The notes beneath the pieces are model-generated. The model worked only from the letters and a program-made list of their open reading frames with translations, had not been told where the DNA came from and ran no database searches. A stretch of 64,000 nucleotides of DNA, taken from NCBI GenBank assembly GCA_030765335.1, contig JAVCCU010000025.1, forward strand, positions 6,784 through 70,783, read 5' to 3'. The stretch's first letter is position 1, and every line of letters begins with the position of its first letter. Below, in pieces: positions 33,321 through 51,607 of this stretch. Position numbers and translations under genes: made by a program. The DNA is from Candidatus Kaelpia aquatica (GTDB lineage: Bacteria > Omnitrophota > Gorgyraeia > Kaelpiales > Kaelpiaceae).

Positions 33321-34709
33321 ATGAAAATAAATGCATTATTTTTTGTTGCTATAGTTTGTTTTTTTATAAATTTAAAATTTGCTCATAGCTCCCAAAATAC
33401 TCAAGAATATAAAGTGCTTTTGGAAGAGTATGGTTTGAATTCATACCTCACGACAGATAATATAGATAGGTTGCAAGATTTTTCCAAATATGCAAAGTCT
33501 AAAGGAAAATTGCTAGACCTTTATCTGTTAAATTATTCTGAATTCCTAAAATTGTGTAAGAGCAATTTCTTTTTTACCATAGATGAAGAAGAGCCTAGTC
33601 AAGTATGCTTTTATGATAAAGAGATAGATGATATTGATAAACTCTACAATGCTTGTGGTGGATATATTGTTTCTCTCCCATTGGTAAATATAGTAGCACG
33701 GCATGTTTACCAAGATAGCAAAGGTAGTCTATCCCAAAATAACATTTTTGTAATATATCTTTTGCACGAAGGTGTCAATTTTTCTTTATTGCAACATTTA
33801 TTGGATAATATTATTGAAAAAGCAGGAGGGCCTTCTGCAGTTGTTTATATAGATGAGCTTGGGTTAATACCGGAAGACTCTGTCAATAGGTATAGCCAGG
33901 CTTACAAGATAAGCGAAAAAGAATCATTCGAAAAAATAAAAAATTCTCTTAAGAACGATATAAAATCAATAAGTATGGGCCATACTATTTATGATTCAAA
34001 CAAGCTTTATGCTCAGATATATAGCTATTTCGCAAAACATAAAATCGACTCTAATATGGAAGATCTTTCTTATGATAATTGGAAAAATATAGTTGCATTT
34101 GATAAGTTGAATTTATGGAGAAAAAGTGCGCGTTTGTTTTTAATGGGTGCGGTGAGAGCATGTATAGAATCTTCTCAAGAGTTTGTGTTTGGATTCATGT
34201 TGTACAATAATATAATGCGTGATGCTAATTTTTCAAATCAACTAAAAGCATTATTGTCTGATAAAAGTGGCACTACATTAATTACTATCCGTGGTCTTGG
34301 TCATTTTGGATTTGAAAAAAAATTGATAGAGGATGCAAATGTAAGTGTTTGTATTTTAGGCGACGAAGGAGACTCTTTCTTTACGCTAACAGCGCTCCGT
34401 GAAAGGTATATGATTTATCAAGTTAATGAAGTGATTTTAAGTAATGAAGAGGAAGATAGATTGCTATTAAATAGCGTACTTAGTTTTCTTATGTTTAATT
34501 ATTTGATAAAATATGGGATAGAAGACAATTACTATGATGCAATGAAAAGTACGATAGCATTATTAACGCCTCTATCTTTAGCACAGCTATATGCACTTCA
34601 AAGCAAACTATTTTATGAGTTGCAGGCAGGAAATTTCTCTAAAAATAATATCTATGAATTTATTTACAATTGGTGTAAAAATCAAACATTTATAAAAGAA
34701 GAGAACTAA
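33321..34709 (+). CDS. secreted hypothetical protein (very AT-rich gene)
   Basis: 462 aa. Signal peptide MKINALFFVAIVCFFINLKFAHS. Composition markedly more AT-rich than its neighbours. Confidence 0.5.
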   Translation: MKINALFFVAIVCFFINLKFAHSSQNTQEYKVLLEEYGLNSYLTTDNIDRLQDFSKYAKSKGKLLDLYLLNYSEFLKLCKSNFFFTIDEEEPSQVCFYDKEIDDIDKLYNACGGYIVSLPLVNIVARHVYQDSKGSLSQNNIFVIYLLHEGVNFSLLQHLLDNIIEKAGGPSAVVYIDELGLIPEDSVNRYSQAYKISEKESFEKIKNSLKNDIKSISMGHTIYDSNKLYAQIYSYFAKHKIDSNMEDLSYDNWKNIVAFDKLNLWRKSARLFLMGAVRACIESSQEFVFGFMLYNNIMRDANFSNQLKALLSDKSGTTLITIRGLGHFGFEKKLIEDANVSVCILGDEGDSFFTLTALRERYMIYQVNEVILSNEEEDRLLLNSVLSFLMFNYLIKYGIEDNYYDAMKSTIALLTPLSLAQLYALQSKLFYELQAGNFSKNNIYEFIYNWCKNQTFIKEEN

Positions 34710-34871
34710 TCCTTTGGAATTATTTTTGCATCACTCACCAAGTTTTATTAAGCAGTTGTTGTAATTATACGAACATAGGCTGGGTTTCGTTAAAAAAACT
34801 AAATCAAGTGATTCTATTGTTTTTTTTGTTTACTTTTTTACCCCCATAACTTTAAAAAGTAGTGATAAAAT

Positions 34872-34901
34872 TTGACAGCACTTATTTTGTATGGTACAAA
34901 T
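34872..34901 (+). promoter_or_regulatory. sigma70-type promoter TTGACA-N17-TGGTACAAAT
   Basis: TTGACA at 34872-34877 and TGGTACAAAT at 34892-34901, upstream of the PilZ gene. Confidence 0.5.
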
Positions 34902-34958
34902 ATATTAGGTAAGAAAGGTGGTAAAGCAGAAATCAAGTTTATATAAGGAGCGGGCAAA

Positions 34959-35306
34959 TTGAACTACGATGGAATGGAAAGAAGGCAGTGGACTCGGGTC
35001 GATATGAATGTTCCCCTTAAATTCAGAGAAGTAGGTGAATTCAGCCGTTCTCCGCTTGATTCAGAGACAAGAGATATAAGTGAAGGTGGCATAAGATTTG
35101 CGACTGATAAGTTTCTTCCAAAAGATAGTAAGCTCGTTATAAACATAGATTTCCATGATATTCCAGCTGTTAAAGCAACTGCTAAAGTTTCTTGGTCGGT
35201 AAGAGATTCTCATACCAGCATGTATGAGATAGGTGTTGAGTTTGATACTATTCCTTCAGAAGCAAGAGTTCAACTTTCCAATATCGTCAGAAAAAACTTA
35301 AATTAA
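34959..35306 (+). CDS. PilZ domain protein (putative c-di-GMP receptor)
   Basis: 115 aa. RRQWTRV (RxxxR) and DISEGGIRF (DxSxGG) PilZ motifs. TTG start 7 nt after AAGGAG. Confidence 0.7.
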   Translation: MNYDGMERRQWTRVDMNVPLKFREVGEFSRSPLDSETRDISEGGIRFATDKFLPKDSKLVINIDFHDIPAVKATAKVSWSVRDSHTSMYEIGVEFDTIPSEARVQLSNIVRKNLN

Positions 35307-36334
35307 GATCTAGATCTATTCTTTCTCTCTAACTCTTTTTTCATCTCCAACTCTTTCAGTCTTTTTCTTCTATCCAAATCGTATTTGTCTATTTTCTTAT
35401 TCAAAGCCTGGCGAGATATTCCAAGCAGATTTGCAACCTTAGATTTATTCCACTTAAGTTCATATAGTATCTCAGTCAATATCTTCTGTTCATATATCTC
35501 AACTACGCCTTTAAGCGTCTTATCTTTTACTGCCACTAGTTTAAGGTTTACTCCTCCAGACCTTAACTTTTCAGACAGGTCGCTGGGCAGTATATGAGGC
35601 CCCTCTGATAGTATTACAGCTCTCTCTATCTCATGCTCTAATTCTCGTATATTGCCCGGCCAGTCATACTCTAGGAGATATTTTATTGCATCTGGCACCA
35701 TGTTTTTTATGGATTTCTTATCATTCTTATCGGCATATAGTCGCAGGAAATGCTCTGCTAAGACCGGGATGTCGTCTCTCTTGTCTCTTAGCGGTGGAAT
35801 TGGGATATCTATGACACAAAGCCTGTAAAAGAGGTCTCTTCTAAACCCGCCTCTCTCTACCTCTTTTTCCAGATTTCTATTTGTTGCTGCTACTATTCTT
35901 ACATCTACAGATATATCACTTGTTGCTCCGACTCTCTTTATAGTCCCTTCCTGTAAGACTCTTAAGAGCTTAGATTGCAGGCCTGGTGAAACCTCGCTTA
36001 CTTCATCTAAAAAGAAGGTTCCTTTATCGGCTGCTTCAAATAAACCTTTCTTCTCAGCTATTGCTCCGGTAAATGAGCCTCTGATATGACCGAATAGTTC
36101 TGATTCAAGTAATGTCTCAGTTAGGGCTGAGCAGTTAACAGCTATAAAAGGAGCATTTCTTCTTTTGGAGTGATAATGAAGCGCTTTAGCGATCAGCTCT
36201 TTACCTGTTCCTGTCTCACCTCTTATTAAAATCGTACTGTTTGTATTTACAACCTTTTCCATGATTCTGTAGACTTCTTTCATGTGACTGTTTGTACCTA
36301 TTATCTCTGGAAATGGATTCTGATATTCTTCCAT
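35303..36334 (-). CDS. sigma-54-dependent transcriptional activator (AAA+ and Fis-type HTH only; no N-terminal receiver/sensor domain)
   Basis: 343 aa. GETGTGKE Walker A, ESELFGH, the GAFTGA-region variant GSFTGA and a C-terminal HTH. The stop codon overlaps the PilZ gene stop convergently. Confidence 0.85.
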   Translation of the reverse strand: MEEYQNPFPEIIGTNSHMKEVYRIMEKVVNTNSTILIRGETGTGKELIAKALHYHSKRRNAPFIAVNCSALTETLLESELFGHIRGSFTGAIAEKKGLFEAADKGTFFLDEVSEVSPGLQSKLLRVLQEGTIKRVGATSDISVDVRIVAATNRNLEKEVERGGFRRDLFYRLCVIDIPIPPLRDKRDDIPVLAEHFLRLYADKNDKKSIKNMVPDAIKYLLEYDWPGNIRELEHEIERAVILSEGPHILPSDLSEKLRSGGVNLKLVAVKDKTLKGVVEIYEQKILTEILYELKWNKSKVANLLGISRQALNKKIDKYDLDRRKRLKELEMKKELERKNRSRS

Positions 36335-36336
36335 AC

Positions 36337-37683
36337 TTAACTCCTCCTTAACTTTGTAGGCAGTATTTTAAGTCTTTCTCTGTATTTAGCTACTGTCCTT
36401 CTTGCAATAGTGATTCCATCCTCTTTCAAAAGCTGCGTAATCTTATTGTCGCTAAGAGGTTTCTTGGAATCTTCCGCTACAACTATATCTTTTATCTTCT
36501 CCTTGATTAATTTACTTGAAATGCCTTTCACATTGCTTGAGAAGAAATCTCTTAATTCAAATATCCCAGAAGGTGTATCGATATATTTGCCATTTACAGT
36601 CCTTGAGATTGTGGATTCATCTAATCCAGTGCTCTCTGAAACCCTATTTAGAGTTAAGGGTTTGAGTCCGGCCTTTCCCTTTTTAAAGAACTCTTTCTGG
36701 TGATTTATAATAAAATCAGTAATTTTGATTATAGTTTTTCCTCTCTGCTCCATTGCCTGAATAAGCTCTTTCGTTGTTTTAAGCTTATCTTTAAGGTATC
36801 TCTTTGTCTCTTCAGGCGTTGAGGGATCCTTTAATATCTTAAGATACTGCTTATTTATCCTTATTTTTGGAATATCTCTCTTATTGGTTCTAATCTGATA
36901 TTTGCCGTCTGGTGCTATATCTAAAAATACTTCTGGTATTGCATAGTTGGGGAATGCGCTAGTATAATTTCTGCCTGGTTTTGGATCCAAGCTTTTCAGC
37001 ATCTTTAAGAACTCTTCCATCTTCTTATCGGTTATCTTTAGCTCTTTCTCTATCTTCTTGTAATTATGTGTGGCAAGCTCCTCCAGGAACCGCTCTATTA
37101 TCTGCTGGAATATTTTTTCTTTTAACCCTTTCCTTGCAAGCTGTATGGTTAGACATTCTTTTAGATCTCTGGCTCCGATTCCAGCAGGTTCAAAATCCTG
37201 AACTATTTTTAAAATTTGTTCACATTTTTTATTTGAAACTTTTAATTTCTCGGCTATCTCAAGCAGGGCTATTTCAAGATATCCGTTGGGGTTTAAATTT
37301 CCTATTATCTCTTCACCTATTAAAAGATTATTAACGCTTATCCTCTGCATATGGAGCTGTTTTAAGAGGTGTTCTTGGAGTGTCTCAGGTTTTGTGACTA
37401 GACTTTCAATGTGCGCTCTTTTTTTAGCGTCTTCCTGACCAAACTTTTCAGACCTCTTCTCCCAGATATTGTCTTCTTGAAATTCAAATTTCTCTTCATC
37501 GGGTATCTCGGGTACTTTCTCTTCTTCGATCTCAAGAAGCGGGTTCTCTTCGAACTCTTCTTCTAGTTTTTCTTTAAGCTCTGTGATTGGCACTTGAAGA
37601 AGGTTTAATAGCTGCCAGAATTGAGGCAACAGCTTAAGTTTTAGCGCCAAGTGCTGTTCAAGGCGGGGGATCATTCTTTCCAT
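36337..37683 (-). CDS. rpoN: RNA polymerase sigma-54 factor
   Basis: 448 aa. C-terminal RpoN box ARRTVAKYR and an acidic region I/II. Confidence 0.9.
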   Translation of the reverse strand: MERMIPRLEQHLALKLKLLPQFWQLLNLLQVPITELKEKLEEEFEENPLLEIEEEKVPEIPDEEKFEFQEDNIWEKRSEKFGQEDAKKRAHIESLVTKPETLQEHLLKQLHMQRISVNNLLIGEEIIGNLNPNGYLEIALLEIAEKLKVSNKKCEQILKIVQDFEPAGIGARDLKECLTIQLARKGLKEKIFQQIIERFLEELATHNYKKIEKELKITDKKMEEFLKMLKSLDPKPGRNYTSAFPNYAIPEVFLDIAPDGKYQIRTNKRDIPKIRINKQYLKILKDPSTPEETKRYLKDKLKTTKELIQAMEQRGKTIIKITDFIINHQKEFFKKGKAGLKPLTLNRVSESTGLDESTISRTVNGKYIDTPSGIFELRDFFSSNVKGISSKLIKEKIKDIVVAEDSKKPLSDNKITQLLKEDGITIARRTVAKYRERLKILPTKLRRS

Positions 37684-45395: not shown

Positions 45396-45487
45396 GGAGA
45401 GGTGTGAGAGCGGCCGAATCAAAACGACTGGAAATCGTTTGACTTGAGAAATTAGGTCCCTGGGTTCAAATCCCAGCCTCTCCGCCA
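45396..45487 (+). tRNA. tRNA-Ser (anticodon GGA), CCA-encoded
   Basis: Acceptor GGAGAGG...CCTCTCC-G-CCA. Anticodon stem-loop AACGA-CTGGAAA-TCGTT gives anticodon GGA. Long variable arm. T-arm CTGGGTTCAAATCCCAG. 92 nt. Confidence 0.85.
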
Positions 45488-45521
45488 TTAATCCTTCCTC
45501 AAATATAATTTTCTTATCAAT

Positions 45522-45550
45522 TTGACTAGATGTATTTGTATGGTATAAAT
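45522..45550 (+). promoter_or_regulatory. sigma70-type promoter TTGACT-N16-TGGTATAAAT
   Basis: TTGACT at 45522-45527 and TGGTATAAAT at 45541-45550, upstream of the repeat-protein gene. Confidence 0.55.
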
Positions 45551-45579
45551 ATATTATCAATTGATAAAGAGGGGGTTAA

Positions 45580-46231
45580 TATGAAATGTAATAAGCTTAG
45601 TGTTGTTTTGGTGTGTTTTATTCTCATAGGTTCTGTTGTTTTTATTCCTGGTCATGCTTATGCCAGAAGAATAAAAGACGATAGTTCAGAACTATCAACA
45701 GAAGATTTAATTCGTATTTCTAATGCTGTTGATTATTTTATTGAACAAGACAGCATGAGAGTCGAAATGTCAACAGAAAATAGAGAAAAATATATAGATT
45801 ATCTACAGAAATGTAATCTTCAAACCTCAGAAAGGAATATACAGTTGTTTGCAAGATTGAACAAGTCATCTGTTGATGCAGGTTTTAATCTTGAACATAA
45901 TGCACCTTCTTATCCTGGAAATACATTTGATGTTCTTAAATCTCTGACAGAAACAGGCATCGTAACCGAAGATAATCTACCTCAATTAATAAATTTAGGC
46001 ATAACATCTGCTGAAGCAGGTTTTCATCCTTGGCATACGTTCAGAGCTCTTGAATTTCTGGCAAAAACAGGTATCTTAATCGAAACTAATCTACCTTAGG
46101 TAATAGATTTAGGCATAGCATCTGCTAAACTACGTCTTAAGCCTTGGGATATATTCAACGTTCTTAAATCTTTGGCAGAATTAGGTGTCTTAACAGAAGA
46201 TAATCTATCTTTGATAATTCTCAAGGATTAA
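45580..46231 (+). pseudogene. secreted tandem-repeat protein interrupted by an in-frame TAG (CAG->TAG within a repeat unit)
   Basis: Signal peptide MKCNKLSVVLVCFILIGSVVFIPGHAYA. ~35-aa repeats (…NLPQLINLGITSAEAGF…). After TAG at 46097-99 the same frame continues the repeat (VIDLGIASAKLRLKPWDIFNVLKSLAELGVLTEDNLSLIILKD) to TAA at 46229-31. TAG is a genuine stop elsewhere in the window. Confidence 0.55.
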
Positions 46232-46437
46232 TAAATAATATAGCTATACCAAATGAGTATGATCAAGTTCTTATATCTACAACTGAAGTAGCTCAATCCA
46301 ATAGGCCTCAGATACGAACAGAGATAAAACGATTAATTGCTAATAAAATTATTATTACTCAGAATGTTCAAGAAGAATTTCCTACAAACAGTATTTACGA
46401 TATAACTGAAGTAGCTCTCTACTGGGAAAAATAACCT

Positions 46438-46608
46438 TGTGCCCAAACTGTGCCCATCTTACATCAAAACATCCGTATGCAAACGTAGGCAAACGTAACC
46501 ATTCGCACTCGATAAATCCTTTACAAAGCAGTGGTTTGCAGCATAGTTTGTTGATATATAAGGAGTTAAGTGATTTAGCTTGATAGAATCCCAGCCTCTC
46601 CGCCATTG
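46438..46608 (+). repeat. islet-end repeat R1 (~170 bp) ending in an exact copy of the tRNA-Ser 3' end
   Basis: About 85% identical over ~125 bp to 48694-48820. Terminates in AATCCCAGCCTCTCCGCCATT. Confidence 0.6.
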
Positions 46609-47002
46609 TTGACGCTCAGTCGAACCCTGTTCCTCAAGAAGGAGTGGAGTTCGCTGTTTTTGGGGCTCTTTCAGTGGTAAGCTATGAACCTTGATTATCT
46701 TGATAAGAGCTTTTAGAAGGCTTATTTGAGCCTCTAGTGGGGGCGGCGAGGTGCGTTCTTTCAGCGACCTTAAAATAAAAAATCGATGTCGTGGTCGTAG
46801 GGAAAAATCGAGAAATTGCTAAAATCAGCGTAATATGTTGTATTTATTGGAGTTATAGCTATTTTAAGCGTGCTCTATAGATTCAAAATAGCCCGAAAAC
46901 CGGACATTTGCCATGTCGTATTATCGTGTTTTGGTGAGTTACAGCAAGTGTGAAGAAAGTATATTCTGGGGTAATTTTCTACACACCCAATGTAATCAAA
47001 GT

Positions 47003-47131
47003 GATAATAACAAAACCTCTTATTATCATTTAACGCCATAAGTGACAATAAAAGATTTTCTTATTACCATTTGGGGCGGCTTGCCATGTTTGAAGATAGA
47101 AATAATAATAAAAATTTTCTTATTGACATTT
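47003..47131 (+). promoter_or_regulatory. three imperfect direct repeats (core TCTTATTRNCATTT) upstream of the Fic gene, the last overlapping its -35
   Basis: 47003-47031, 47044-47072 and 47101-47131. The third contains TTGACA (47123-28) of a TTGACA-N17-TAATAT promoter (-10 at 47146-51). Confidence 0.45.
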
Positions 47132-47213
47132 AAGTGTGTAAATGATAATATATGTCCATATTCAGGTTGAATATTAATAGCGTAGGTTTGTTAAGAATAA
47201 TTAGAGGTGACAT

Positions 47214-48332
47214 ATGTTTAAAGCTGGAAATTACAAGCAACAATATGAATACAAAAGTTTTTTGCCATCGTTAGTTAACGTTGATTATCAGTGGGAGGAT
47301 AGGCAAATTGTTGTTTTATTAGAAAACGCTATGCGTTATCTGGGGGAACTCAATGCCTATTCAACGCTAGTTCCGGACGTGGATTTTTTTATTCAAATGC
47401 ATGTGGCAAAAGAAGCTACGACGTCCAGTCGTATTGAAGGGACAAGAACCAATATTGACGAAGTTGTTTTGCCTGAGAATGAAATCAGTCCTGAAAAACG
47501 TGATGACTGGGCAGAGGTTCAAAATTATATCAAGGCAATGAATTTTGCTATTGATGAGCTTGATAAATTGCCTTTATCGATGAGGCTGCTCAAAGAGACG
47601 CATAAGAGATTGCTCTCAGGTGTAAGAGGTCATCATAAACTTCCGGGAGAAGTAAGAAGAAGCCAAAACTGGATTGGCGGATCAAGCTTAAAAGATGCTT
47701 TTTTCGTTCCGCCACACCATGAAGATTTACCGGATTTGTTGACCGACCTTGAAAAATTTTGGCACAGCAAGGAAATCAATCTTCCTCGTTTAATTCGGGT
47801 TGCCATCAGCCATTATCAATTTGAAACGATTCACCCTTTTCTGGACGGTAATGGCAGGGCAGGACGACTTCTTATAACTTTGCAATTAGTTGATATGGAC
47901 ATATTGAATAAGCCTTGTCTCTATCTTTCAGATTTTTTTGAAAGAAATAAGGGGTCATACTATGATTCATTGAGTGTAGCAAGAGCTTCAAATGATCTTG
48001 ACCAGTGGATAAAGTTTTTTCTTTCAGGAGTCATTGATACAGCTAAGAATGGGAAGGAAACTTTAGAAACCATTGTTAAGCTCAGAAAACAATATGATGA
48101 CAAAATTATAACTATGGGAAGAAAAGCCAAGCCAGCTCAAAAACTGCTTTTGTTCCTTTTTTCGCATCCAATTGTTTCTATCGGGCAGGTCTCTGATCAT
48201 TTAGGAGTAGGATTTTCCGCGGGCGGAAGATTAATAGCGGATTTTCAAAGAGTCGGATTTTTAAAAGAAGTGACAGGTTTTTCTAGAAATAGGTTGTTTG
48301 CGCTGTCGGAGTATTTATCGTTGTTTAAATAG
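47214..48332 (+). CDS. Fic family protein (AMPylase-type) with intramolecular inhibitory motif
   Basis: 372 aa. Fic motif [12 protein letters not shown] and N-terminal inhibitory [ST]xxxE[GN] motif SSRIEG (class II arrangement). RBS AGAGGTG upstream. Confidence 0.85.
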
Positions 48333-48693
48333 CAGGGTATAGGTGTATATGACAAAAACAAAAAGCAGAAAATCATCTGGAATAAGTGCTTGGTGGAAGA
48401 AAAGTAAAGGTATTGAGCAAAATTAACAGGGATAAAGTATATTAATTAGAAAGTGAGTTAGGAGTTTTAAAAAATAAGAATGCCAAATTAATCAGAGAGC
48501 TTATGAGTGCTGCATCTTCACGATGAGGCTGTTTTATAACGTTTGGATTAGACTAGAAACGCAAAGCGGATAAATCTATCTCTTATAACTCATTGTCTCA
48601 TTGTATGAATCTAAATGTTCTTAAAAGGTGGTTTTATCCACCAAGCAGCAGTTATAATATAACCCAATTAGCACTATGCTGGCAGGATAGTGC

Positions 48694-48862
48694 TGTGCCC
48701 CAACTGCGCCCATCTTATACAGTAACATCTGCATACAAACGTATGCAGATGTTACCATTCGCACTCGATAAATCCTTTACAAAACAGGGGTTTGTAGTAT
48801 AGTTTATCAATATATAAAGAGTTGCGGGTTTTAGTTTAACAGAACCTCAGTCTCTCTGTTAG
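48694..48862 (+). repeat. islet-end repeat R2 (degenerate copy of R1) ending in a diverged tRNA-3'-end-like sequence
   Basis: Contains the perfect palindrome ACATCTGCATACAAACGTATGCAGATGT. Ends in GAACCTCAGTCTCTCTG, ~70% identical to the att-like part of R1. Confidence 0.5.
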
Positions 48863-48892
48863 TCTCTGATAGAGTAAATTTATATTATTGTT

Positions 48893-49678
48893 ATGAATAA
48901 TGATTTTAAATATATATATGGTCCGGTATCATCTTGGAGACTAGGTTCTTCTTTGGGTATAGACCCTATATCTGGAGAGAATAAAATTTGCGGTTTTGAT
49001 TGTATCTATTGTCAGATAAAAGAACCAAGCTTATTGAGCCTAAAGAGAGAAATTTTTGTAAATACTGAATTAATTGCTGATGAATTACAATCCTTACCCT
49101 CTGGTTTAAACATTGATTGTATTACTCTCTCAGGTAGGGGTGAGCCTACTTTGGCTTTAAACATTAAAGATATAACTAGTGCTGCAAAGAGCATCTTAGG
49201 TCATCCAGTTGCGCTTCTTACTAACTCTACAATGCTTTTAAGAGAAGATGTTAGAGATGATATCTCTGACATTGATTTTGTAATAGCCAAGATAGATGCT
49301 TCTAGTAATGAATATTTAAGGGCCATAAATAAGCCGCATGAAGATTTAGATTTTTTAAGCATCTTAGATGGAATTAAGAGGTTTAGAGTTAATTATAAAG
49401 GAAAATTTGGAATTCAGATTATGTTTTTAAAGTCGAATGAGTCTGAGGCTAAAGGTATTGCAAGGCTGGTCTCTGAGTTAGCACCGGATGAGGTCCAGCT
49501 TAATACCCCCTTGCGTGATTCTGCAGTCAAGGCTTTATCAAAAGAGGAGATGGGCAGAATAACAGAATTCTTTAAGGACTTTAATGTAATTTCGGTTTAT
49601 GATAGAGAGAAGAAAATAGTAGAGTCAATAAGTGAGGAAGATACAATGAGAAGAAGGGGGAAGAACCATGATAGTTGA
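48893..49678 (+). CDS. radical SAM domain protein (small, subfamily unassigned)
   Basis: 261 aa. CGFDCIYCQ CX3CX2C motif and N-terminal YGPVSSWRLGSSLGIDP. Confidence 0.65.
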   Translation: MNNDFKYIYGPVSSWRLGSSLGIDPISGENKICGFDCIYCQIKEPSLLSLKREIFVNTELIADELQSLPSGLNIDCITLSGRGEPTLALNIKDITSAAKSILGHPVALLTNSTMLLREDVRDDISDIDFVIAKIDASSNEYLRAINKPHEDLDFLSILDGIKRFRVNYKGKFGIQIMFLKSNESEAKGIARLVSELAPDEVQLNTPLRDSAVKALSKEEMGRITEFFKDFNVISVYDREKKIVESISEEDTMRRRGKNHDS

Positions 49679-49901
49679 TATAACTCACCTAAAACCCAAG
49701 GAGAGCGGCGTGGTTGTTGAGATAAAGGGCGGCACTGGCCTTATTGACCGCCTTAAAAGCATGGGCATAAGAGTTAGCAAGCGGGTAAGTAAGGTTAGCT
49801 CTCATTTTTGGAGAGGTCCGCAGACTATTGAGATTGATAATTTTACAGTTGCTATCGGCCATGGAATGGCTAAGAAGATTATAGTAGATACAGATAAATG
49901 A
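49668..49901 (+). CDS. feoA: ferrous iron transport protein A
   Basis: 77 aa SH3-like FeoA (LKPKESGVVVEIKGG...RLKSMGI). Overlaps the feoB start. Confidence 0.75.
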   Translation: MIVDITHLKPKESGVVVEIKGGTGLIDRLKSMGIRVSKRVSKVSSHFWRGPQTIEIDNFTVAIGHGMAKKIIVDTDK

Positions 49902-51607
49902 AAAACGTTCTATTAGTTGGAAATCCCAATGTAGGTAAGAGCGCTATATTCTCTCGTCTTACAGGGGCAAGAGTTGTTATATCTAACTTTCCCGGCTCAA
50001 CCGTTGAATATACAAAAGGCCGGAGCAAGATCTTTGGAGATGTTGTAGATGTAATAGATATCCCAGGTACTTATAGTTTAAAGCCTAATTGTTGCGCTGA
50101 AGAGATTGCAGTCAAGATGCTTGATCAGGGCGATGTCATTGTAAATGTAGTTGACGCGACGAATTTAGAGAGAAATCTCTATCTTACTCTAGAATTAATA
50201 GAGAGAGGTTCTCCTGTTATAGTTGCGTTAAATATCTGGGATGAGACAAAGCATCGTGGAATCAGTATAGATATTAAGAGATTAGAAGAGCTGCTAGGGG
50301 TGCCTGTTGTAAGTACTTGCGGCTTGACGGGGGAAGGCATAAGGGAGTTAGCATTAAAGATGAAAGATCTAAAGCCAAAACATAGAGAGGATGTTTCTGA
50401 TGAGCAGCGTTGGATAGAGATAGGCAATATTACTCAAGAGGTGCAGAAGCTTCACCACAGGCATCATACGTTTCTTGAGATTTTAGAAGGTTTGAGTATT
50501 AGACCTTTTAGCGGTTTGATCATAGGGCTTCTTATTATGGCAGTCTCTTTCTTTGTGGTCAGACTTGTAGGCGAGGGCATTATTAATTATCTATTGGATC
50601 CGTTATTTGAAAATTACTGGCTTCCTATAATGGACAGCCTAAGTGCCGTTATCTCTAAGTTTAGTTTTTTGCATTATATAGTAATAGGCAGGCTAATAGA
50701 TGGAGGGATAGATTTTGGGCTCTCATTTGGGCTTTTGACTACAGGTCTCTATGTACCCATCGTTATGGTTGCTCCTTATATTTTGAGCTTCTATTTTGTT
50801 TTAGGGCTTATGGAGGATTTTGGTTATCTTCCACGTCTTGCTGTTTTAGTTGATAATGTGATGCATAAGTTGGGATTACACGGTTATGCTGCTGTGGGGA
50901 TGATCTTAGGACTAGGCTGCAATGTCTCTGGTGCTCTATCGGTACGATTACTCGAAAGTAAGAGGGAGAAGTTTATTGCTTCAACGCTTCTTAGCATTGC
51001 GGTGCCCTGCATGGCTCAGATTGCCGTTATAGTTGGACTATTAGGTGCAAGAAGTCATAAGGCGGTAATGGTTGTATTTTTAACCCTTCTTTTGCTTTGG
51101 TTCATAATAGGCTATGTTTTAAATAAGGTTTTAAAAGGGGAGAGCATCCCTTTGATGCTTGAGATTCCTCCATATAGAAGGCCTCAGTTAGGAGCGGTCT
51201 TAAAAAAACTCTGGATGCGGATATCAGGTTTTTTACTCACTGCGATACCCTATGTATTATTAGGCGTTCTTTTGGTTAATATGCTCTATGCTTTTGGGGT
51301 AGTAGATTTCTTTGCTCGCATTTTTTCACCGCTGCTTAAAAATATCTGGGGTCTGCCATCAGAGGCAATATCGGCATTATTAGTTGGATTTTTAAGAAAA
51401 GATGTTGCTGTGGGTATGTTGGGACCAATGGGTTTAACATTGAAGCAGCTTACTATAGGCTGTGTTATTCTTGCCATATACTTTCCCTGTTTTGCTACTT
51501 TCATAGTCTTATTTAAAGAGTTGGGGTTAAGAGATATGCTAAAAGCGGCAGTTATTATGATATCTGTAGCGATTATAGTAGGCGGAGCACTTAACTTCAT
51601 ACTTTAG
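49898..51607 (+). CDS. feoB: ferrous iron transport protein B
   Basis: 569 aa. N-terminal G-domain GNPNVGKS plus a polytopic membrane domain. Confidence 0.9.
   Translation: MKNVLLVGNPNVGKSAIFSRLTGARVVISNFPGSTVEYTKGRSKIFGDVVDVIDIPGTYSLKPNCCAEEIAVKMLDQGDVIVNVVDATNLERNLYLTLELIERGSPVIVALNIWDETKHRGISIDIKRLEELLGVPVVSTCGLTGEGIRELALKMKDLKPKHREDVSDEQRWIEIGNITQEVQKLHHRHHTFLEILEGLSIRPFSGLIIGLLIMAVSFFVVRLVGEGIINYLLDPLFENYWLPIMDSLSAVISKFSFLHYIVIGRLIDGGIDFGLSFGLLTTGLYVPIVMVAPYILSFYFVLGLMEDFGYLPRLAVLVDNVMHKLGLHGYAAVGMILGLGCNVSGALSVRLLESKREKFIASTLLSIAVPCMAQIAVIVGLLGARSHKAVMVVFLTLLLLWFIIGYVLNKVLKGESIPLMLEIPPYRRPQLGAVLKKLWMRISGFLLTAIPYVLLGVLLVNMLYAFGVVDFFARIFSPLLKNIWGLPSEAISALLVGFLRKDVAVGMLGPMGLTLKQLTIGCVILAIYFPCFATFIVLFKELGLRDMLKAAVIMISVAIIVGGALNFIL

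Follow-up and report, generated by a model that had tools for sequence, protein, structure and literature searches.

In the Islander collection of genomic islands, attachment (att) sites lie in the T-stem region for 1836 of 3919 islands, and 125 cases of tandem arrays are recorded (PMC4383910). Decay to elements that retain only attL and attR, followed by tandem accretion, has been described as a pathway for cis-mobilizable elements (CIMEs) and for decayed integrative and conjugative elements (ICEs) or integrative and mobilizable elements (IMEs) (PMC5704250). The present study concerns the DNA 3' of a tRNA-Ser(GGA) gene in a 64,000-nt stretch of Candidatus Kaelpia aquatica (the window, to which all unlabelled coordinates refer), a species of Omnitrophota represented by a metagenome-assembled genome from Ace Lake, Antarctica. 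Two units lie between this tRNA and a conserved radical SAM-feoAB operon; each carries one gene and ends in a repeat, here called R, that is fused to a displaced copy of the tRNA 3' end. The locus is probably an integration hotspot that holds tandem, decayed islets without an integrase, built up by CIME-like accretion. A limited check of the published literature on the genus Kaelpia found no description of mobile elements, and the locus offers a first look at integration-hotspot dynamics in Omnitrophota, a candidate phylum without cultured Kaelpia.

Displaced copies of the tRNA-Ser(GGA) 3' end

The tRNA-Ser(GGA) gene, the only tRNA called by ARAGORN in the window, is 97.8% identical to that of the sister species K. 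imicola (contig L009, 5404-5495). A 21-nt core, which comprises the last three nucleotides of the T-loop, the 3' strands of the T and acceptor stems, the discriminator, CCA and a following TT, is found at the end of the tRNA and again at the end of each of the two R bodies:

45396-45487, plus strand: tRNA-Ser(GGA), intact, with full acceptor stem and CCA (ARAGORN); the regenerated target gene and live attachment site
45469-45489, plus strand: core copy 0, AATCCCAGCCTCTCCGCCATT (21 nt), the reference copy, identical in K. imicola
46438-46586, plus strand: R1 body, about 150 nt, ending in core copy 1
46587-46607, plus strand: core copy 1, a displaced tRNA 3' end, exact repeat of core copy 0 (21/21)
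48694-48842, plus strand: R2 body, about 150 nt, ending in core copy 2
48843-48863, plus strand: core copy 2, an old displaced tRNA 3' end, AACCTCAGTCTCTCTGTTAGT (14/21), in the register set by the R alignment

The tRNA and its repeated tails had already been recognised in the initial annotation, and both were recovered by ARAGORN and by the 21/21 and 14/21 copies; the exact copy, placed there at 46588-46608, is indeed exact and lies one base further left. At the sequence level the att-like repeats are exact for unit 1 and decayed for unit 2. The displaced fragments are in direct orientation at both sites, as they also are in K. imicola. Six of the seven differences between core copy 2 and the reference are transitions, mostly C to T, a pattern expected for neutral decay in a genome of 37% G+C. 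The R1 junction was reproduced in independent assemblies from other samples (L021, L017 and L018), as was the R2 junction (L002, L003 and L004), and the array is thus not an assembly artefact. The Rfam tRNA model scored below its gathering threshold on this tRNA-Ser with its long variable arm (45396-45487), the sole match being tRNA-Sec at 30.7 bits.

R1 and R2 are 80% identical over 163 nt without gaps, and a global alignment of the bodies gave 81%; the repeat pair described in the initial annotation is real, and its identity is lower than the ~85% given there. A 30-mer common to both (ACCATTCGCACTCGATAAATCCTTTACAAA) occurs twice in the window, with none expected from 100 shuffles. R starts 3-4 nt past the cargo stop codon. 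Within R1, TGTGCCCA is present twice, at 46438 and 46449, in an 11-nt phase, and CGTAGGCAAA is repeated 2.4 times with a 10-nt period (46474-46497). The R copies contain two to three CAAACGTA-type boxes spaced 10 nt apart, in place of which R2 and the copy in a third species have a hairpin. Both the TGTGCCCA pair and the phased CAAACGTA repeats are confined to R copies, and the TGTGCCCA pair is never inverted. Direct repeats at helical phase beside a core bear a resemblance to arm-type integrase sites. R is a previously unseen family of putative att arms in Omnitrophota.

In the hairpin of R2 (48722-48755) a 4-nt spacer, AAAC, separates two perfect arms of 15 nt (48722-48736 and 48741-48755), and the structure is not the uninterrupted 28-bp palindrome that had been reported from a first reading. 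A function of R as a structured RNA or as a folded single-stranded DNA site was considered and rejected, as no consistent fold was obtained and this hairpin is found only in R2: the fold z-score was -5.5 for R2 and -0.6 for R1, no better than shuffles, and the covariation term of the consensus fold of six copies was negligible (only -0.9 kcal/mol). No Rfam family matched R at gathering or permissive thresholds.

Comparison with other Kaelpia genomes

Synteny with K. imicola extends to either side of the locus, with nucleotide identity of about 85%, and the tRNA is the same. Conserved stretches at the borders of the K. aquatica array are:

45488-45580, plus strand: left arm, a conserved stretch 3' of the tRNA followed by the 5' untranslated region of cargo 1 (similarity to K. 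imicola)
48893-51607, plus strand: radical SAM, feoA and feoB genes, the conserved flank (Pfam)

From 48879 onward the downstream flank is 85.7% identical to K. imicola, and the core genome resumes with radical SAM-feoAB at 48893, as first proposed and as Pfam and the synteny with K. imicola agree. Homologues of a 220-aa protein encoded upstream were found only in K. aquatica and K. imicola.

Between these flanks K. imicola has the tRNA, a left arm, a secreted protein with tetratricopeptide repeats (TPR) and a transglutaminase-like part, a repeat (Ra) with core (21/21), the left arm again, an unrelated secreted protein of 301 aa, a second repeat (Rb) with core (19/21), a frameshifted gene, and a badly decayed third repeat (Rc), whose core is beyond recognition, before the radical SAM gene. 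The frameshift divides the gene of this third unit (L009 8357-9355) into parts of 111 and 189 aa without a Pfam match, and its cargo is thus decayed. In a third Kaelpia-like species (L014/L015; radical SAM 78% identical), R lies directly upstream of the radical SAM gene, behind the 3' end of a gene for a 4Fe-4S protein; the core of this R matches at about 10 of 21 positions by eye. Cargo therefore differs in each of the three genomes, and the flanks and the R-core punctuation are shared. The initial annotation had named, as a case that would speak against integration, relatives carrying the same Fic and repeat-protein genes with no att-like duplication; K. imicola has different cargo together with the duplication.

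K. aquatica and K. imicola, the two species in which the whole interval is available, both have an exact tail copy beside the tRNA and poorer ones further away, which is the gradient that serial insertion at a live tRNA predicts. The R copies do not behave as orthologues. R1 is 90% identical to Ra and 87% to Rb, and Rb is 77-78% identical to the repeat of the third species; the positional equivalents R2 and Rc share 53%. These relationships suggest that related elements arrived repeatedly from a common pool, and not that a single structure was passed on by descent.

Cargo genes

The genes carried by the two units, and the smaller features around the second, are as follows:

45581-46434, plus strand: cargo 1, a secreted repeat-protein pseudogene (translation, Tandem Repeats Finder, intact homologues)
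46588-46773, minus strand: remnant of a small open reading frame (ORF), truncated and internally deleted (compared with L023 5842-6075, 77 aa; tblastn E 2e-17)
46998-47213, plus strand: SoFic promoter/operator region, with TTGACA at 47123, a TG-extended -10 element TAATAT at 47146-47151, and CTTATTNNCATTT-type motifs
47214-48332, plus strand: cargo 2, a SoFic-type class II Fic AMP-transferase of 372 aa (Pfam Fic_N and Fic)
48349-48426, plus strand: 25-aa basic ORF, 16 nt past the SoFic stop, called in one contig of the Joint Genome Institute (JGI)
46998-48332 in the window; L018 12330-13661; L023 6147-7387; L024 5475-6797; L026 432-1743; L027 7793-9123: copies of the SoFic module (DNA similarity)

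Cargo 1 consists, in order, of a signal peptide, an N-terminal domain, 38-aa repeats (period 114 nt, 2.6 copies), a TAG codon (46097-46099), a frame change near 46230 and a C-terminal fragment (46234-46434, a 66-codon tail). Intact homologues of 795 aa (P0247) and 751 aa (P0248) match both its N-terminus and its C-terminus, showing that about 450 internal codons have been lost. Cargo 1 is thus a pseudogene of a secreted repeat protein of about 750-800 aa, and the nonsense codon to which its inactivation was originally ascribed is present in addition to this large internal loss. The family is rare, with eight matches among 1.84 billion representative proteins, and a paralogue (P0245) is present elsewhere in K. 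aquatica. With 45581-46096 as the query, the best non-self match was a protein of the stick insect Bacillus rossius (P0244; XP_063237924.1, 1473 aa, E 5e-35), which may reflect bacterial contamination of, or transfer into, the stick-insect assembly; all other named matches are from Omnitrophota.

The initial description of cargo 2 as a Fic-family protein holds and can be made more specific. Judged by its sequence, cargo 2 is a SoFic-type anti-phage defence gene. The PADLOC SoFic model aligns with the full-length protein (residues 9-371, E 4e-114), solved SoFic structures in the PDB are matched as well (E 6e-28), and the translation contains a Fic motif of the HxFx(D/E)GNGRxxR type and an inhibitory motif, SSRIEG, of the (S/T)xxxE(G/N) type. 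Sofic is reported to act in abortive infection as an AMPylase and to have a small antitoxin encoded downstream (PMC12249575). The full-length match and the combination of Fic and N-terminal inhibitory-helix motifs are as in that system, although cargo 2 is only about 30% identical to the studied proteins. Much closer relatives exist: amino acid identity is 95% to another member of Omnitrophota, 94% to Dependentiae, 87% to Nitrospinota, 79% to Scalindua and 77% to a Woesearchaeote. The DNA of a module that begins about 200 nt ahead of the gene and ends precisely with its stop codon recurs at 79-91% identity in five unrelated neighbourhoods, some of them defence-island settings, and its protein matches span Omnitrophota, Dependentiae, Nitrospinota, Planctomycetota and a Woesearchaeote. 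By these matches, SoFic is an exceptionally mobile gene that has been widely transferred horizontally between phyla.

Similarity to the other SoFic contexts begins at 46997-47019 (L024, L026 and L027), at 47094 (main block of L023) or at 47130 (divergence point of L018). Inverted and direct repeats of the CTTATTNNCATTT type overlap the SoFic promoter (47021-47059/47112-47150 and 47051-47072/47110-47131) and are found again ahead of SoFic in L023, L026 and L027; their probable role is that of autoregulatory operators for the C-terminal winged-helix domain of SoFic. A tRNA-like fragment beside SoFic in L023 was not significant (15 of 22 matches, 9 of them within the shared block). A tRNA-Ser(TGA) gene lies 3.3 kb upstream of SoFic in L027, where its tail is not repeated, and this was judged a coincidence; the repeat protein near that SoFic gene is an unrelated TPR protein.

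The left junction of the SoFic unit can be followed by comparison with L023, from another Omnitrophota genome, in which a 77-aa ORF lies divergently upstream of SoFic. In blastn, 46600-46681 corresponds to L023 5857-5938 at 94% identity. This homology stops at 46600, 8 nt inside core copy 1 (CCGCCATT), and the remnant ORF has lost its own end there. The junction may thus have arisen by a microhomology-mediated (8-nt) deletion or joining, and such a deletion could be how the neighbour of the tRNA, possibly an integrase module, was lost. Within 46608-47213 no integrase remnants were found; the only remnant was the small ORF linked to L023, which had no Pfam or PADLOC match.

The 25-aa basic peptide had been singled out as a candidate remnant of mobility functions. 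This found no support, the actual remnant being the truncated minus-strand ORF at 46588-46773. The 25-aa ORF lies where E. coli Sofic has its AS1 antitoxin gene (PMC12249575), and in the five other contexts it is not conserved 3' of SoFic.

Some further observations were made around these genes. The L018 assembly agrees fully with the window as far as 47130, a point within the SoFic promoter. Beyond it (L018 12470-14454) lie a SoFic gene diverged by 13% and then, where the window has R2 and radical SAM, an OmpR-type response regulator; this could represent an additional SoFic copy in the genome, a variant strain or a chimeric assembly. Breaks in JGI contigs fall at 46891 and 47036. A terminator-like hairpin with a T-run, on the minus strand at 46891-46905 between the remnant ORF and the SoFic promoter, hints at a short divergent transcript. 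Elsewhere in the window, 34500-36500 differs from L017 by 259 mismatches in about 2 kb, at a sigma-54 activator / sigma-54 region, and the next 14 kb has four mismatches, near 41.5 kb; this cluster looks like a recombination tract between strains.

Proposed mechanism

Serial site-specific integration at the tRNA 3' end, as proposed from the window alone, is supported in its essentials by the exchanged cargo of K. imicola and by the decay gradient, with an integrase presumed. Elements of one family would have carried an att site made up of the ~150-nt R arm and a 21-nt copy of the tRNA from the T-loop to CCA, and would have undergone site-specific recombination with the 3' end of the tRNA, presumably catalysed by a tyrosine integrase from a parent or helper element. 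Each insertion would have rebuilt the tRNA and pushed the prior tail downstream, fused to R. In this order of events the SoFic islet (46608-48863) would have arrived first and the repeat-protein islet (45488-46607) later. After insertion, mobility genes would have been deleted, the sole hint of this being the junction at 8 nt of microhomology that truncates an ORF at 46600, and homologous recombination between direct repeats of ~170-380 nt would probably swap, duplicate or delete units. Radical SAM-feoAB now appears to be served by the outward promoter of the distal R.

Several observations weigh against this reading. No integrase, excisionase or transposase was found in the locus of either species or in the neighbouring genes examined, a search that covered both loci, 20 further ORFs of the window and the Pfam lists of the contigs. 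Fic domains are the only Pfam domains in the K. aquatica islets, and the earlier statement that no mobility gene is left was thus borne out. An empty site, in which the tRNA is directly joined to radical SAM, was looked for in related genomes as the initial annotation had recommended, and none was found; synteny is lost outside Kaelpia, where radical SAM-feoAB has other neighbours, and the radical SAM homologues of L010 (73%), L016 (57%) and L028 (62%) are neither syntenic nor accompanied by the tRNA. In L016 (1049-2307), from a more distant member of Omnitrophota, the place taken by R in Kaelpia is occupied by a Fur gene that overlaps the beginning of radical SAM-feoAB; Kaelpia has no Fur gene there.

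The second recommended search, for R elements beside an integrase, also gave none, in genome and metagenome collections that do not contain the source genome and are hence uninformative. Pattern scans yielded one chance match of 20 nt in genome contigs (L005), three of 20-24 nt in metagenome contigs and, with three patterns, nothing in viral contigs. R matched no phage or plasmid record, and the 19-mer of the tRNA tail was present among viral contigs only in an unrelated tRNA cluster of a jumbo phage. No parent element (ICE, IME or prophage) at the same att site was found in the viral, genome, metagenome, phage and plasmid collections. An R profile detected no other locus in 294 kb searched, of which about 87 kb is Kaelpia DNA, and the dispersal of R through the genome that had been named as contrary evidence was thus not seen within those ~87 kb.

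The units are moreover tiny, at 1.1-2.3 kb with one gene each. A final point concerns the left arm. In K. imicola the blocks that follow the tRNA and Ra are 90% identical over about 170 nt, spanning promoter and signal peptide, which exceeds what a site-specific core needs and would suit events driven by RecA.

Alternative explanations

The main rival is homologous recombination alone: after one ancient event that brought R and the core together, unequal crossing-over by RecA and Campbell-type insertion of circles, acting on direct repeats of R, core and left arm of up to ~380 nt, would have built the array with no integrase since. This account is possible, though clearly less probable than serial integration, and the left arm speaks for it. 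In K. aquatica the arm shares about 80% identity with the 67-69 nt that follow the K. imicola tRNA and 78% with what follows Ra, and a promoter-like element (TTGACT/TTGTAT ... TATAAA) is present across both species, read in the window as TTGACT (45522-45527), a 16-nt spacer and TATAAA (45544-45549). The ~170-nt block of K. imicola ends abruptly after the signal peptide (MKRISII...FIPNISFARR), past which the mature proteins are unrelated; unit 1 of K. aquatica has a diverged version of the same peptide. The family of repeat proteins (P0245, P0247) is the native setting of this signal peptide; its presence at the start of the unrelated TPR and 301-aa proteins as well implies that recombination took place within coding sequence. 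The lack of an integrase and the left junction of SoFic, which is an 8-nt microhomology and not an att arm, fit as well. Homologous recombination alone, however, leaves unexplained the precise tRNA-tail end of every unit, the non-orthologous behaviour of R across species and the presence of R at the distal end of the unrelated SoFic cargo, and a first site-specific event would still be required. The long left-arm repeats and the chimeric signal peptides suggest that homologous recombination also reshapes an array laid down by site-specific integration.

It is rather unlikely that the units are members of an active cassette system without an integrase of its own, and not relics. They would then be single genes on a shared backbone of ~380 bp, formed by the R arm, the tRNA-tail core and the promoter/signal-peptide arm, and a recombinase encoded elsewhere, by the host or a helper, would insert and exchange them at the tRNA-Ser 3' end. 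If true, Kaelpia would possess a platform comparable to an integron but anchored at a tRNA, on which secreted proteins and defence genes are exchanged, and only in that case would the locus represent a new mechanism; otherwise its use is as a note for annotation and comparative genomics.

R might also be the native regulated promoter of radical SAM-feoAB, its upstream copies being local segmental duplications without any mobile element. A promoter-like element directed towards the core is present in R1 (TTTACA-16-CATAGT, 46520-46547), and its counterpart in R2 (TTTACA-16-TATAGT, 48776-48803) lies some 85-90 nt ahead of the radical SAM ATG. This block is the best-conserved part of the R next to radical SAM in three species, at a constant distance from the ATG, and is retained even in K. 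imicola, where the remainder of that R has decayed; the phased upstream repeats resemble activator sites. A duplicated promoter, however, would lack the copied tRNA 3' end with which every clearly recognisable R terminates (21/21, 21/21, 19/21 and 14/21, with ~10/21 by eye in the third species). Radical SAM-feoAB outside Kaelpia (L010, L016 and L028) is without R, and the cargo between the copies is unrelated and partly horizontally acquired. The explanation thus fits poorly and is very improbable. The conservation of the promoter block at a constant distance from the ATG points instead to co-option of the distal R arm as a putative promoter of the operon. A faint similarity to the beginning of the left arm is seen in the ~30 nt that separate the R2 core from the ATG, as if part of the native 3' flank of the tRNA had been copied into the site of the element too.

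Some CRISPR-associated transposons (CASTs) carry a tRNA-matching spacer near one end. A reading of R as the end of such a Tn7/CAST-like transposon or of a miniature inverted-repeat transposable element, with the 21-mer as a homing or guide sequence, can draw on the TGTG with which R begins and on its short repeated motifs, but it fits poorly and is largely refuted, since there are no inverted copies of the R terminus, no terminal inverted repeats, no transposase or Cas gene and no dispersed copies in the sequence searched, and since the sequence after the core equals the left arm after the tRNA, as recombination within the core predicts and insertion further downstream does not.

Comparison with known systems

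The locus shows a travelling SoFic defence gene and lineage-specific secreted proteins parked, and then decaying, beside a tRNA, and how an iron-uptake operon may come to use the arm of an element as its promoter. The R repeats and islets are a familiar genomic-island scar and not a new mechanism, as is evident when they are set beside described systems.

Like Islander islands (PMC4383910), the array has a regenerated tRNA and displaced 3' fragments in direct orientation at island ends, an identity block of the T-stem/T-loop type, and a tandem arrangement. The variability of content that belongs to the Islander signature is also seen here, with flanks that are 85% identical, unrelated cargo in K. 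imicola and a third cargo in the third species. Unlike those islands, each of which is required to contain an integrase gene, the units described here have none and would be filtered out as relics.

The CIMEs and the ICESt1 family of Streptococcus (PMC5704250) likewise keep repeats of the target-gene 3' end after loss of integration and transfer genes, and new arrivals at an att site containing the gene end stack in tandem with resident units that are generally decayed. The Kaelpia units differ in being far smaller (single genes of 1.1-2.3 kb), in having no known parent ICE, IME or prophage, in belonging to an uncultivated member of Omnitrophota, and in that three of them share a promoter and signal-peptide arm; their mobilisation is putative.

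Integron cassettes, including clusters of attC sites lacking integron-integrases (CALINs), are also single-gene units in one orientation, each ending in a recombination-site-like repeat of ~60-170 nt, with the newest unit adjoining a fixed insertion point and with arrays possible without a nearby integrase. R is nevertheless not an attC site: no imperfect palindrome is conserved across its copies, there is no core of the GTTRRRY type, the insertion point is a tRNA 3' end, and some units have their own promoter. Integrative mobile elements exploiting Xer (IMEX), which use XerCD at dif as in the CTX/TLC arrays of Vibrio, resemble the Kaelpia array in stacking in tandem without an integrase and in being bounded by copies of their site; here the site is a tRNA end instead of dif, and nothing links a host recombinase to it.

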